Positions 18,001-30,000 of a stretch of 64,000 bases of DNA are shown here, in pieces. Each line of letters begins with the position of its first letter. Position 1 is the stretch's first letter. Made by a program: the position numbers. Source of the DNA: a virus (taxonomy: Duplodnaviria > Heunggongvirae > Uroviricota > Caudoviricetes); the IMG/VR virus record IMGVR_UViG_2721755660_000001; one strand, given 5' to 3'.

Positions 18001-21000
18001 AAGAGAAAGCTGGTCGCCAACGGCGTGCTGCGCGCCGTAATGAACTTAAGCCGATACGTCACTGGGTACAGATGACTCAGCGCGCCTTCAACGACTGGCG
18101 TCGCGAAATGCTGCTGGCAGCCGGTCACGGTTGCATCTCTTGCGGAACCAAGACCGCCTTTGCCTGGCATGCCGGGCATTACCGCACTACGGCCGCCGCA
18201 CCGCAACTTCGCTTTAACCAGGACAATATCTGGCTGCAGTGCTCCGCCTGCAACGTTCACAAATCCGGAAACATCGAGGCATACCGCGCCGCCCTGATTG
18301 AGCTGATTGGCGAGGAGCGCGTGCTGGCGCTGGAATCCAACAACGAAACCCACCGATACACCCGTGAAGAGCTGGATGGCATCCGCGCTAAGGCACGGGC
18401 AGATCTTCGCGCATTCAAACAGCAGGTGGCAGCATGAGCACAGAAACCGAAATTGAACTGGGCACGGTTGTCGCGTTCCCGACGAAGAATAACGACCTAC
18501 AGGACGGGCTGGTTATTCAGCGCGAAGGGCAGAAGGTTATGTGCCTGCACTCCACTGTTTGGGTGAATGAAAAAGACCGGACCTTACGCTGCCGGAAGTG
18601 CGACACGCTGATCGAACCTTTTGACTTCCTTATGACGCTCTGCGACCAGGAGTCTCGCTACATGGAGAACGTGAAATATCTCCGCCGGGAAGAAAAGCAG
18701 CGCCGTCAGAATATCGAGAAGCTCATTCAGATTGAGAAGAACGCCAAAGCCCGTATTCGCCGCGCCGGGGATAAGTCGCCACTTCCTCTCTGGCAGAACG
18801 AGAGGGTTGAAGAATGACGCGTGACCAGATTATGCGGTACCAGGCCGAAAGCGTTAAGCGCGCCAACCTGCCGCCAGTAGCAAACCACAGCCAGAACAAA
18901 ACCAACCAGCCACATAAGGAAGCCGCATGAACAGTCAGCAACTGGAATACGTACGTCAGCAGCTCATTGTGGCGACCGCAGATCTGAGCGGGGCGACGAA
19001 AGGGCAGCTGGTAGCTTTTGCCGAGAATGCGCAATTCACCGCGACGGCGCGCAGCCGGGGCCGGAAAAAGGTATTCGACAAGGATAAGCAGCGCATGGTC
19101 AACCCGGATGGTCCGCCGATGAGCGGCAGCCAGTCACGCGCTAAGGGCTCGTCTATCGCGCTGGTCAGCCCTGTGGAGTTTGGTACCGCGTCATGGCGCC
19201 GCGCCGTCCTGTCGCTGGAAGAACACCAGAAAGCGTGGCTGCTGTGGAACTACAGCGAGAATATCCGCTTCGAATACCAGGTGGCGATCACCCAGTGGGC
19301 GTGGGCAGAGTTCCGGGAACAGCTCGGCGCGAAGAAGGTGGCCGGCAAGACGATTGAGCGCCTGAAGAAGCTTATCTGGCTGGCGGCGCAGGACGTCAAA
19401 GCGGAGCTGGCGGGTAAGGATGTGTATCAGCATCAGGACCTGGCCGCCCTGTGTGGCGTTAAGCCGGATAACTGGTGTCATAACTACGCCGATTACTGGC
19501 TTGCCATGTGCGCCATCTTTAAGCGGCTTGATGGCGATTCACTCCTCTGTACTGTGAGAACACGATCACAACAAAAAGCGACTTTTTCGCAGCAGGGTAT
19601 TGCAAAAGTCAATTAAATAGCATACTTTTCATGTAAATCTGATATCTTCGCCATAGCTTTGTAGGACGACAAAGAATTAACAGCCTCGCCATCGTGCGGG
19701 GCTTTGTTTTTTGTGCTTTCTGTAAACCAAGTGGGCGTTAAAAGTTAAAAATCATTATTTACTTATTTAAAATGTGGCCTCCACTTAAAACAGAGAGACC
19801 TCATCATGAAGAATTTCCAGCTTTATGTTGGCGGCACTAACAACATCACCTATCGTTACGAAATTCATAAGATGGATGATGCTTTTAGTGTTCGGATTTT
19901 TAATGTCATCGATAAAGCACACAAAGAAGTGGGGGCTAAACTCCTTCGCTCAGTTTCATCTCACGACGTAATTGATGAGTGCGTGTCACATTACAAAAGG
20001 CAAGCGCAAGGCGTTAAGGGTTTTCTTCGCTGGCTTGGATTGTGAAAAAGTATCAGATTAAACAGGTCGCTTAGGCGGCCTTTTTTGTTTCTGCACAACA
20101 GGAAAGAGCATTTGCAGGGTTCGACTCCCTGCCGTGGGGTTGTGCCACATGATGCGAGTAATGAGTGCTCTCTCCGTTGTGGTGTAACTCAATTCCCGCT
20201 TGCGGGTTAAATGGGTAAAGTAATGCATCAACTGGCATAGCCAGCAGGGCAGGCATGATGCTAATGCTGAACCTGAGTATCGGTTCGAGTCCGATCGCCA
20301 CACACCAGAACCCACTACCTGGGATCCTTCGGCCAGAGAGCCGACATTGCCTTACCCTCATCTTCCCGGCCTGTCGCCGGGTTTTTTATTCAGGCCGCAG
20401 ACAATCAATTCCAGATGCCCCGTAGCTATCGTGTCTGACGGCCTTTTCTCAACTACCACACAGCACCCCGGACCCGGAGGTGTGGAATGCAACGTATGAA
20501 CCCAACAAATGGACACGATCTGCCGTACTGGTGGTCGGCGGCCTTGGGCCTGTTCTCTTTGCTTAGCCTGCAGGATTACGTGTTTATTATCGGCGCGCTG
20601 GTATCGGCGTTCTTCACGATAAAAACCTATTACGCAAAACGGAAAGAAGAGCGTAAGCGTATGGCTGAGGAAAGGAAACGAACCCAGCTGCTGGAAAACT
20701 ACTTATCTGATGTAGGTAAAAAACCTCACTCCGATCGTCCGGCTGCCGCCGAGGTGGTTACGGAGGCAATGCGGAGAATTTCCGGTGGCACAGTTGAAAC
20801 TGAGTAAGAAAAGCGGCGCGGCGGGCATTGTCTGCTCCGTAGGAACGATCATCGCCATTGTGGTGAATGCGGGCCATGTCAGGACTAACGAGCGCGGGCT
20901 AGAGTTAATCGGTAACGCTGAGTCTTGCCTGCGTGATCCATATGTCTGCCCGGCAGGTGTGCTGACTGACGGTATGGGTAATACGCATGGCGTAAAACTA

Positions 21001-27000: not shown

Positions 27001-30000
27001 TAGACATTTACGTATTAAATATATATAAAACAGCATTAAAATTTTTACGGATGGAAAATAATGCGGAAGATTTTGTCTTGGATCGGAGGGCTCATCGCAA
27101 TAACGTCGGGAGTGGTTACGCTTGTTGCTTTCTTTCTTCCACAGTACGTACCCGAGCAAACCAGATTAGCCATTGGGCGCTTTCTTGAGTTTATGAAGGT
27201 AAACCCATATGGCACTCTTATTACGATTGTGTGCTTAGTACTTTTAGCTGTAGTTTGGATGTTAAGCAGTAAAGTGATTGAGCTTACTAAAGGAACCAAG
27301 CTATTCGCCATGTGCGGATTGTACTGGAGCAAAGACAATCAGCCTTTTTGCCCAAAGTGTAAAGAACCAGCTTCAGTGCATGACGATGATGAGTCTTATC
27401 GCTGTAATTCATGCGGAAGAATTATTTTTCCCAGTTTCGAGTCTAAACAAATATCCATCACGAAAGCTCTGCAAATAGTAAATTCAAAAAGAGGTCGCTA
27501 AGGCGGCCTTTTTTTTTGCCAAAAACTCATCAATGAGGACCCAGCATGAAACGCAACCGCGTTAACGTGCTGACCGTCGTCAACTCCGCTTCAAACATCA
27601 CCACCGAAACCATCGACGGCAAGCCACATATCGTGGTTCGCGGCATCACGCCTGTCGTGGACGATATCGTGATGAACCGGAAGTTGTACCCGGCAGCAGA
27701 AATCGAAAAGGCCTACAACACGCTTGAGCGTAACCCGATGCCGCTGGGCCATCCGAAAGTGGACGGCAAGCATGTTTCGGCGCGCGATGTCCGGGCGGTG
27801 AATGAATACCACGTCGGCGCCTGGCTTCAGAACGTCAGCCACAAAGACGGGAAGGTGACGGGCGACATGTACGTTAACCGCCAGTACGCCGAGTCGAGCG
27901 ACAAGGGCAAACTCCTCATCAACCGCCTGGATGAGATGCTGGCCGGTACCAACTCCGACCCTATCCACATTTCCACCGGCCTGCTGTATTCCGGCATTGC
28001 CGCCAACGGCGAATCGAAGGGCAAGAAGTACAACGAGATCGCCACGAACATGATGTTTGACCATGTGGCGGTGCTGCTTGATGAGCCTGGTGCAGGTACG
28101 CCGGAGGAGGGCGTTGGCATCTTTGTTAACTCAGAAGGTGATGAGCAACAGATTGAAGTTGCCCGCCTTACTGATGGTATCGACTGTACCCGCGATGGCC
28201 TGCTCAACAAAACCAAATTCTTCTTCACCAATGCCTCCAACTTCTCTTTCGACGACATCTCCCGCGCTATCAGCGACAAGCTGCGCGAGGGGGACGCCGA
28301 AGATAAGTGGCTTTGGCCTGAAACGGTGTGGCCGGACAGCTTCATCTACCGCAATGACACCAAATACCTGAAACAGAAGTACCTCATCGATGATGACGGC
28401 AAGGCCGTGCTCGTCGGCGAACCTGTAGAAGTCGTGCGCAAACCCACTGAGTACGAGATTAAAACCAACGGAGAGAACGATCCGATGAAAGAACTGATTA
28501 TCAATGCGCTGCAAGCCGCTGGTAAGCCGACTGAAGGCAAGTCCGACGCCGAGCTGATGGACGCATACAACCAGATGGCCGCCGAAAAGGCAGCGAAAAC
28601 AGAAACGCCTGAAGAAAAGGCCGCCCGCGAGAAGAAAGAAGCGGACGACAAGAAGTCGAAAGAGCAGGCCAACAACAACGAAGAAATGCCCGGTTGGGCT
28701 AAGTTGCTGAGTGAGCAAGTTACCGCCATTAACAGCCAGCTCAATGCCAACTCTGACAAAGAGAAAGGCGAAAAGCGTGCTGCAGTCAAAGCCAAGTTTC
28801 TGCTCGACGACATCGCTGTTAACGCACTCGATGGCGCTGCACTCGATGGTCTTTATGCGCAGTGCCAGACCTCTGTCGGCCTGAATGGTGCATTCCGCCA
28901 GGTCAATTCCTCTCAATCAGTCAGCGAAATGCCGGAGTAAAAAATGGCTAAAGATGGAAAGCATATCATTCACGCTGGTGGCGTGTTCCCTAATCCGCTG
29001 CTTAACCGTGAAGGCGCAGCTGCGGCATCCACTCCACCAGGCACAATTGGCTTCTTCAGCTCGGCGGATAAGTTTACCGCTTCGGTAGCAGGTAATGAGG
29101 CTGCAATCCTTTATGTTGCAAACAAAGATTACCTGCGCTGCTTGTCAGTTGATGACGCTATCCCTGCGGGTGAGTTGGTGGTGGGTATTCAACCGCTGCC
29201 TGGCATGTTCTTAAACGTACGTGCGGCCGCTGGCACCTACACCAAGGGGCAAGCCCTATCTATTGCAAACGGCCGAGTCAAAGTGGCTGCTGGCGACGAG
29301 TCAGTGCGCTGCTACGTCGAGGAAGACAAATCATACACAACGGCAGCAGGCGATCTGCTTCGTGTCGTAATCAAGTAAGGGGCAGATATGTTTGTATTCT
29401 CCAAGTCTATCGGTGAAAAGACCGGTAACCTCGCGGTTAACCAGGCGCAATGGCGCGCCCTTGAAGTTGAGCGAAACGCCAGCGCACAGGCTGCGGCTGA
29501 TTTTCTGGCGCGCACTCAGTTCCGTGGCGATGCAGAAAATGCTCCTTATCTCGACGCTGTGAACGCAGTTGACGATATCCGTCGCCTGTATCGCGCTTTC
29601 GACACAACTGTGCTTCAGCAGTTCGAGCCGAATACCGAGTTCACTCTGTTGAACGATTTGATGCCGCTTTCTCGCTCCGTGCGAATAGAGCAGTCTCGTT
29701 ACGATTATGCTCGTACCGGCGGTCGCGGCTGGGCTCATACGTCCATGTCCGGCCAGGTCGGTGCGGCGCTGGATGCTCGCAGCTATTCCTTCGATGGCAC
29801 TATGGTGCCTATCCACGACTCGGGCTTTAAGTTCGAATGGCGTGATCCAATCTTCAATAGCCCGCAGGCATTGCAGTCGCAGTCGGATGCGCAGCGTGGA
29901 TCCGTTGAAGACGTTCAGCGTCGTTACGTTGATTACATTTTCAACGGCTTCCGTGACAAAGCTGGCAACTTCGCAGTCTTCGATGGCCTTACCTGGAAAG

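Follow-up and report, generated by a model that had tools for sequence, protein, structure and literature searches.

Three short hairpins in a lambdoid prophage of Escherichia coli are, with a probability of roughly 70%, copies of a dispersed family of intrinsic terminators that are related by descent and that border exchangeable accessory slots. The prophage is contained in the IMG/VR virus record IMGVR_UViG_2721755660_000001, of which a stretch of 64,000 nucleotides (nt), referred to here as the window, was analyzed. The window is E. coli DNA, most of it (approximately positions 1300 to 47850) belonging to the prophage, and positions 19600-27600 were 100% identical to the chromosomes of E. 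coli GB089, O22:H8 154 and OkiPb01715. Copy 1 (AGGTCGC-TTAG-GCGGCCT at 20064-20081, then TTTTT; feature 20064..20086) and copy 2 (AGGTCGC-TAAG-GCGGCCT at 27492-27509, then eight T; feature 27492..27517) are on the plus strand, where they form direct repeats 7.4 kb apart, and differ by a single loop base. Copy 3 (AGGTCGC-TCGG-GCGGCCT at 3433-3450, then TTTTT and ATTGC; feature 3428..3450) is on the minus strand and has a stem identical to those of the other two. The family would consist of Rho-independent terminators of lambdoid temperate phages of Enterobacterales, of the form AGGTCGC-N4-GCGGCCT plus a T-run, and in its members the T-run was usually followed by ATTGCC.

An earlier note on this DNA had placed such hairpins after two unrelated, AT-rich genes, and copies 1 and 2 were located exactly there. 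Copy 1 follows orf79 (19806..20045, plus strand; 79 amino acids), which matched PHROG 21608 (function unknown) and no Pfam family. Copy 2 follows orf146 (27061..27501, plus strand; 146 amino acids), a predicted membrane and zinc-ribbon protein with two hydrophobic segments and a four-cysteine CPKC...CNSC zinc ribbon, for which Pfam and PHROG searches yielded no family match. Comparison of the two proteins detected no similarity, so the description of them as unrelated was borne out, as was their AT-richness: the GC content of each gene was 0.42, compared with 0.55-0.58 in neighboring genes and 51.5% in the whole prophage, and the 57-nt spacer 5' of orf146 had a GC content of 19%. Copy 3 is sited between a DUF551 gene upstream (3465..3806, minus strand; Pfam PF04448, PHROG 6925) and a DksA/TraR-like zinc-finger gene downstream (3155..3379, minus strand; Pfam PF01258, PHROG 54).

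All three copies have the anatomy of an intrinsic terminator, a GC-rich stem-loop directly before a U-tract: the stem is of 7 bp, with five G-C pairs and one U·G (the T·G wobble of the DNA), and is closed by a tetraloop and followed by 5-8 T. The hairpin folded with -11.2 kcal/mol in the sense orientation and -5.6 kcal/mol in the antisense orientation, the weaker antisense fold resulting from a C·A mismatch where the sense strand has U·G. Within a 46-nt context, copy 1 reached -15.3 kcal/mol (z = -3.6) and copy 2 -17.7 kcal/mol (z = -4.4). The hairpin begins 18 nt after the stop codon at copy 1 and 14 nt after it at copy 3, and among 154 instances upstream stop codons were mostly 7-24 nt before the hairpin (range 0-24 nt). 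At copy 2 the stop is inside the loop; the 5' arm consists of the last two codons of orf146, and the loop opens with its TAA, so the base that distinguishes copies 1 and 2 supplies the orf146 stop codon. A homologue in L081 (related phage loci are cited here by L numbers) had the loop TGAG at the equivalent place, again a stop. Approximately 13 good terminator candidates were found in the prophage, three of which belong to the AGGTCGC/GCGGCCT family. A search with Rfam 15 at the gathering threshold matched isrJ, a tRNA, C4 and isrK in the window and covered none of the hairpin copies.

The family was found well beyond this prophage. An exact-stem scan of IMG/VR, the counts of which are lower bounds, returned the stem with its T·G wobble in at least 120 contigs, with 36 different loops, and clustering of the 250-nt flanks of these matches and of the head-slot loci described below gave 91 upstream and 65 downstream clusters. 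In approximately 2 Mb of related phage loci, 205 family copies stood in 112 upstream and 78 downstream contexts. BLAST with a 35-mer against phages was noisy at E ≤ 10 (939 partial matches, many of them to Vibrio and Felixounavirus phages), and the phages named here came from the search at E ≤ 0.05, which placed the family in phages of Edwardsiella, Pantoea, Providencia, Klebsiella, Yersinia and Salmonella. CobraSix carried four copies, each in another slot. ES18 carried AGGTCGC-TACG-GCGGCCT after gp3, where its record annotates a putative terminator; in HK639 the same stem had the loop TTCG, and in the P22-like phage L it had the 3-nt loop AAT, between ral and orf232, each again annotated as a terminator. 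Each of these records treats its own copy as an isolated putative terminator, and membership in a multi-slot family was not remarked in the ES18, HK639 and L records or in searchable papers.

The cargo bordered by the hairpin was highly variable. The head slot is the interval between the MuF-like head morphogenesis gene on its left (26020..27003, plus strand; Pfam PF04233) and the DUF2213 head gene on its right (27546..28940, plus strand; Pfam PF09979, PHROG 760), and it was compared in 80 loci chosen via the DUF2213 protein, independently of the motif, with the MuF-to-DUF2213 interval readable in 78. The family hairpin was present in 46 of these 78 loci, 38 of the 46 having it at 31 nt before the start codon, and it stood behind at least 22 unrelated cargo clusters. 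The search of phage genomes for the motif and its flanks, suggested in the earlier note as a check, thus showed that it does track variable cargo. In other loci different stems, namely ACCCGC/GCGGGT, ACCCAGC/GCTGGGT and AGGCTGC/GGCGGCCT, stood in its place ahead of an unchanged tail and leader, and some loci had reverse-oriented cargo without a hairpin at that point. In E. coli GN25 (L381 5423-5776), a reverse-oriented immunity gene of the Rap1a/Tai family (type VI secretion) replaced orf146, indicating that the slot hosts cargo with plausible fitness effects. Five head sites were empty and lacked any terminator, with 24 nt in one (L248) and 122 nt in four (L263, L264, L266 and L294), which indicated that the backbone does not need a terminator and that the terminator arrived with inserted DNA. 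The exact orf146 protein was called in 437 blocks of the public collection, all at the head slot, and orf79 in other genomes always came after the late antiterminator gene Q. The RefSeq annotation of E. coli O22:H8 strain 154, whose genome is 100% identical here, omits orf146 and leaves a gap between the minor head protein and DUF2213.

Homology between the window and its relatives broke off at the slot borders. At the head slot it ended at 26978-26997, the end of the MuF-like gene, and resumed at 27488-27492, with 29 high-scoring segment pairs to related loci beginning precisely at 27492, the first hairpin base. At copy 3, homology from the DksA/TraR side crossed the hairpin and ended at 3457-3480, which in the transcript is immediately 5' of it. 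At copy 1, homology with orf79-carrying relatives (L051, L113) ended at 20085, after the T-run, and resumed at 20309, the segment between containing differing tRNA genes in the relatives and tRNA remnants in the window. One downstream cluster was paired with 22 upstream clusters, and upstream clusters were paired with at most 3 downstream clusters. Pairs of hairpins had the same loop in 22.5% of cases when only the downstream flank was shared, in 33% when only the upstream flank was shared, and in 6.6% when neither was; the hairpin was thus passed on with the cargo in some cases and with the backbone in others, and is itself the joint. In many relatives it stayed with the downstream backbone as the cargo changed. 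Among the clusters, no cargo was clearly seen in two unrelated slots, the upstream clusters with several pairings being mostly same-slot variants. Where the cargo begins on the left, and immediately 5' of the hairpin, a search for conserved motifs recovered only A-richness.

The leader and ribosome-binding site of the DUF2213 gene (27518..27545, plus strand) are a variant of the conserved ATTGCCTGAAATCCACCAATGAGGACCCAGC, and the post-hairpin leader ATTGCCTGAAATCCACCAATGAGGAC, ribosome-binding site included, was kept before different downstream genes (L028, L034, L014, L073 and others). In ES18 (L365 2081-2135) the same leader occurred at another slot, before gp4, between terminase and portal. 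This non-coding leader was more conserved than the genes it serves.

Conservation within the hairpin itself was uneven. Mean pairwise identity across 31 distinct head-slot alleles was 99.5% in the stem, 92% in the T-run, tail and leader, 87.4% at third codon positions of the adjacent gene, and 65.8% in the loop. Exchange of entire hairpin alleles, rather than drift within a site, best accounts for loops that vary more than silent sites. Among 80 early-left loci, chosen via the DksA/TraR-like protein, 37 had the family hairpin, 30 with exact stems and the rest with single-base variants that included one change of the wobble to T-A and one compensatory outer pair; the latter was the only compensatory pair among the 83 family-like hairpins of both protein-selected sets. 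In approximately 15 early-left loci, judged by eye, a different hairpin (GGGAGC..GCTCCC) stood between identical flanks. The stem is thus kept at the level of sequence with almost no covariation, yet it is replaceable wholesale. At the places equivalent to 3433-3450, the hairpins swapped in were GGGAGC-TTAA(G)-GCTCCC or GCCTCT-TAA-AGAGGC, and the flanks ..ATCACC and TTTTTATTGCTGGCG.. were unchanged around them (L384, L385, L387 and others).

Several observations weigh against the reading of a dispersed terminator family related by descent. Copy 3 in its 46-nt context (-13.6 kcal/mol, z = -1.5) was not distinct from its own shuffles, and it follows a gene of ordinary GC content (0.50), which makes the label of a "moron terminator" too narrow. 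A simple terminator scan reported copies 1 and 3 and missed copy 2, probably because the A-tract upstream can pair with the U-tract. Stems such as ACCCGC/GCGGGT were also scattered, in approximately 28 contexts in the 2 Mb of phage loci. The tail TTTTTATTG occurred after other terminator stems as well and is therefore weak evidence of descent; use of the tail TTTTTATTGCC as proof of common descent was dropped on the same ground. The exact stem was also present in the genomes of unrelated bacteria such as Vibrio, Colwellia and Acinetobacter, in a scan of at least 120 matches, mostly from unrelated taxa, from which no frequencies can be derived. The copies in unrelated taxa had A-runs upstream and generic loops (TTCG, GAAA), and convergence is to be expected given the enormous number of terminators in such a collection; some convergence on the exact stem clearly happens. 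The enterobacterial matches among those listed in that scan had phage-like flanks (e.g., L145, L177).

If convergence or chance were the general explanation, a good terminator stem would have arisen independently each time and its recurrence would reflect functional optimization. The bacterial copies just described favor this, as does the frequency with which a T5-ATTG tail and a U·G at the fourth pair from the loop occur in other terminators of these phages. As an account of the phage copies, however, convergence appears very improbable. More stable neighbors of the stem were almost absent where the wobble version abounds, the 205 wobble copies in the 2 Mb standing against 0 copies of the perfect C-G variant and 1 copy of the perfect T-A variant. 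A second IMG/VR scan, in which the fourth stem pair was left free (AGGNCGC..GCGNCCT), found T·G in 80 and all other variants in 40 of the 120 contigs among the matches listed, a ratio of 2:1; the non-T·G instances among them were G-C (19), C-G (14), T-A (5), A-T (5) and G·T (2). Inspection of the flanks showed that the wobble-variant matches almost all look enterobacterial. Nothing forces the exact sequence, as other stems work at the same positions, loops were co-inherited with flanks, and no match to the motif appeared in 100 dinucleotide-preserving shuffles.

The earlier note had also allowed that the motif might be ubiquitous in the backbone genes of the host, and this did not hold, as the only counterpart in the E. 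coli core is a T-A variant, at tkt. Across 5,426 complete E. coli genomes, the tkt terminator (AGGTCGC-TTCG-GCGACCT) was the sole widespread relative, present in approximately 3,600. It resembles the phage family in its 5' arm and its T-run, which is followed by ATTACC; it differs by a Watson-Crick T-A in place of the phage T·G and by an A-run upstream, and it occupies a single fixed chromosomal position without variable cargo. Near-exact family matches were found in approximately 66 E. coli records, a lower bound, and the one inspected lay in a prophage; the 35-mer BLAST used here returned mostly the tkt terminator and is blind to members with other loops and tails.

Descent alone leaves the mode of exchange to be considered. 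Botstein's modular theory reportedly postulated "linker sequences" between modules, and the block of approximately 30-55 nt formed by hairpin, T-run, ATTGCC and leader could conceivably be the temperate-phage counterpart both of these and of the promoter early stem-loop elements (PeSLs) of T4, through which RecT, Red-beta and Erf would swap accessory genes between dissimilar genomes. Under this possible but less favored explanation, the hairpin, T-run and leader would be an active, short-homology substrate for RecT and exonuclease (Red or Erf in relatives), causing cargo swaps rather than marking the survivors of them, and the stem would be uniform because the homology itself propagates. Sequences diverge on both sides of the conserved block, producing a two-sided mosaic, and the conservation of the stem in sequence, with one compensatory pair in 83 and variable loops, would be expected. 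The prophage encodes RecT (6544-7461; Pfam PF03837) and a YqaJ-like exonuclease (5248-5997; Pfam PF09588) in a recombination module at 5248..7461 on the minus strand, and T4-type phages provide a precedent in their PeSLs (PMC2839356, PMC4122927). In the head-slot consensus, the 3' arm and all that follows up to and including the leader form approximately 43 nt of unbroken identity, which counts for an active linker, as it exceeds the 23-27 bp reported as the minimal pairing segment of Red-beta (PMC3945230). Different slots, however, share only approximately 20 nt uninterrupted, which is under that segment. No cassette among the head-slot loci was flanked on both sides by the motif, the left junction had no conserved motif, and the hairpin can be replaced by a different stem at identical flanks. 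Junctions at gene boundaries, moreover, are also left by random illegitimate recombination followed by selection.

The uniformity of the stem could instead be due to recognition of the hairpin, with its invariant U·G, by a factor of the phage or the host, for example an RNA chaperone that binds 3' ends, such as ProQ or Hfq, a nuclease or a DNA-binding protein; this binding, and not just termination, would then constrain the sequence. Such a site would explain why stem identity was near complete with almost no covariation while loops were free, why the U·G was kept in 46 of 46 head-slot hairpins and 36 of 37 early-left family-like hairpins, and why the antisense strand folds so much less well. 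This is nevertheless an improbable explanation. No candidate factor was found to co-occur with the motif, the copies are in N-dependent and in Q-dependent operons of phages with differing recombination and regulatory genes, no Rfam family matched, and a U·G at that position is common in unrelated terminators.

The wobble is a feature of these phages more generally. A single U·G with the U in the 5' arm was common in other terminators of related phages, and in the window such terminators were seen at 2757-2776 (minus strand) and at 19682-19703, 32536-32555 and 38372-38391 (plus strand). The fourth position from the loop was the most frequent site of the wobble (48 of 142), with the cores TCGC/GCGG and TGCC/GGCG, and its orientation was skewed to 5'U·3'G (89 versus 53). 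This skew could result from mutational bias or from selection for strand-specific hairpins.

Least probable of all is movement by a dedicated enzyme, with the hairpin acting as a miniature mobile element or an integron-like cassette site, such as attC, a repetitive extragenic palindrome (REP) or its mosaic form (BIME), or a miniature inverted-repeat transposable element (MITE). In being short, imperfectly palindromic and placed at the 3' end of variable single genes, the hairpin does recall attC sites and REPs. Its length is only 18 nt, however, it lacks terminal repeats and target duplication, and no conserved partner site was found on the left side of the cargo; the open reading frames (ORFs) scanned nearby included no integrase of the integron type, no RAYT and no transposase; and the E. 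coli core, which is rich in REPs, has essentially no copy of the motif. As specific candidates, attC, REP and MITE were rejected on their length, missing partner sites and missing enzymes, with no attC-like core sites found, and boxB/nut and put-type elements were rejected likewise, on comparison with their general features. The suggestion in the earlier note of a common, cassette-like acquisition mechanism found no support, as no conserved left-end motif, flanking repeat pair or associated recombinase was found. Nor does the hairpin behave as baggage owned by the cargo: in many relatives it acts as a slot border and stays with the downstream backbone. Other stems also fill the same slots.

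Among known systems, the closest are the morons of lambdoid phages, a concept of Juhala and Hendrix (reviewed in PMC3594210). The likeness includes an extra gene in a lytic operon, deviant GC content, a promoter-like site, a factor-independent terminator, and empty sites in relatives. At the head slot, orf146 is absent from collinear relatives, where the site may be empty or hold one of at least 22 other cargoes. A sigma-70-like promoter candidate for orf79 (TTAAAA-17-TAAAAT, 19745..19773, plus strand) was found by scan with 9 of 12 consensus matches, and a similar TTAATA ... TAAAAT was seen by eye at the corresponding place in CobraSix. Upstream of orf146, a promoter-like TAGACA-17-TATAAA (27001..27029, plus strand; 10 of 12 matches) overlapping the MuF stop codon was read from the sequence and is absent from the listing of a stricter scan. 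Promoter prediction upstream of both genes thus yielded consensus-like sites only, and the number of sites in the region was not above shuffled expectation. With their promoters taken as putative, both genes fit the definition of a moron. The proposal of an autonomous expression unit, also made in the earlier note, stands as far as AT-richness, an upstream promoter-like site and a downstream terminator are concerned. The hairpin is not specific to morons, as copy 3 demonstrates. The moron concept differs in predicting no common terminator for unrelated morons, and here one terminator was found in approximately 78 contexts; here, too, the terminator marks exchange junctions and follows a gene that is not moron-like. 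Arbiol et al. stated explicitly that the regulatory sequences of morons are not thought to be vehicles of mobility.

The PeSLs of T4-type phages (PMC2839356, PMC4122927) are similar in that a short conserved motif with a terminator stem-loop borders variable insertions or replacements of single genes, and in that the junctions fall at the motif, here at 27488-27492, 3457-3480 and 20085. A PeSL, however, combines an early promoter with its stem-loop, whereas no conserved promoter was found beside the present hairpin: the information profile was at background upstream of it, and downstream it showed only T5-ATTGCC followed by the leader and ribosome-binding site. PeSLs flank ORFans (ORFs without known relatives) on both sides, whereas the present motif is usually on one side: the head-slot intervals that carry a family hairpin have only one, and the left junction is the 3' end of the MuF-like gene. 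PeSLs belong to the hyperplastic regions of virulent myoviruses, and the present family to temperate siphoviruses and podoviruses. Recombination of PeSLs into mini-circles was shown experimentally, whereas the present family is known from its sequence. The AGGTCGC hairpin is therefore not a PeSL, having no linked promoter, being unpaired around the gene, and belonging to another type of phage. In a 2024 survey of phage hotspots, predicted terminators served only to split islands into units. The family-level pattern appears to be undescribed, and no earlier description of the terminator family was found in the searchable literature, which lacks most subscription-journal papers.

Under the preferred reading of a terminator family bordering slots, each copy in the prophage would stop transcription begun at or before the upstream accessory gene and would thereby insulate the lysis, head or early genes downstream. 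In the lysogen, the AT-rich genes may be transcribed from their own weak sigma-70-like promoters (19745-19773 and 27001-27029), for which consensus matches are the evidence. After Q, the prophage has a short isrJ-like RNA (19632..19705, plus strand; Rfam RF01393, 54.8 bits), closed by a tR'-type terminator found by scan, AGCCTCGC-CATCGT-GCGGGGCT (19682-19703, plus strand), and orf79 would also be shielded from the late promoter by this terminator. In appearance, the RNA is this phage's short PR'-tR' transcript, and "isrJ" may be no more than a family name for the leader RNA made from the late promoter of lambdoid prophages. Upon induction, polymerase modified by Q would read through copies 1 and 2, and polymerase modified by N through copy 3. 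This scheme follows the established behavior of lambdoid operons and morons (PMC3594210). We infer that the identical stems descend from one terminator that spread with inserted genes, rather than from convergence. Units of cargo plus terminator would have been added to operons first; the terminator with its T-run would then have persisted as a border, together with the leader belonging to the gene downstream, and the cargo within the bordered slot would have been replaced repeatedly.

The remainder of the prophage has a lambdoid arrangement. The early-left operon, which includes RecT and the YqaJ-like exonuclease, is on the minus strand, and the repressor and replication genes are between it and Q (18927..19616, plus strand; Pfam PF06323, E 5e-83; PHROG 304). 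Lysis genes, terminase and portal lie between Q and the MuF-like gene, and the coat and tail genes come after the DUF2213 gene. Between copy 1 and the lysis genes, tRNA-like remnants (20092..20300, plus strand) comprise the 3' fragments ..GGTTCGACTCCCTGCC.. and ..GGTTCGAGTCCGATCGCCA, and ARAGORN called no tRNA there. CobraSix and other relatives have intact tRNA genes at the equivalent place, starting 2 nt after the T-run, and the first bases of those tRNAs (TTGCCTG) coincide with the ATTGCCTG tail known from other slots.

The integrase (46524-47744) adjoins tRNA-Arg(CCT) and is preceded by two acyltransferase genes. These belong to an AT-rich stretch with many promoter-like sites (43002-45998, minus strand), between the tail fibre gene and the integrase, which contains a pair of Acyl_transf_3 genes plus one gene whose N-terminal domain resembles hyaluronate lyase. 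The stretch probably serves the prophage as a module for surface-polysaccharide conversion. Farther right, beyond the prophage, a C4 antisense RNA (78.9 bits) and isrK (64.8 bits) are side by side in the region 58718-58905 (minus strand), adjoining an Eco57I-like methylase and a BsuBI/PstI-family endonuclease (59500-62000). A second mobile element, under immunity control of the P1/P7 type, is suggested by this arrangement, and the region was found in only 138 of the 5,426 E. coli genomes.

The accessory slots of prophages carry genes for immunity, defence and conversion, and the route by which they pass from phage to phage is still debated, the competing views being random illegitimate joints filtered by selection and recombination at short conserved linkers. 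A recognizable terminator bordering dozens of cargoes in hundreds of enterobacterial phages provides a landmark for such slots and for unannotated small genes, and its defined sequence allows the linker hypothesis to be tested genetically in E. coli. The natural loop and stem variants, including the conserved U·G that makes the hairpin strand-specific, could also be used in the study of terminator design. Our finding extends the picture of the moron and does not overturn it. If the hairpin is only a shared terminator, it would be a tidy refinement of the moron concept; if the block takes an active part in exchange, the family would challenge the view that the regulatory sequences of morons are not vehicles of mobility.

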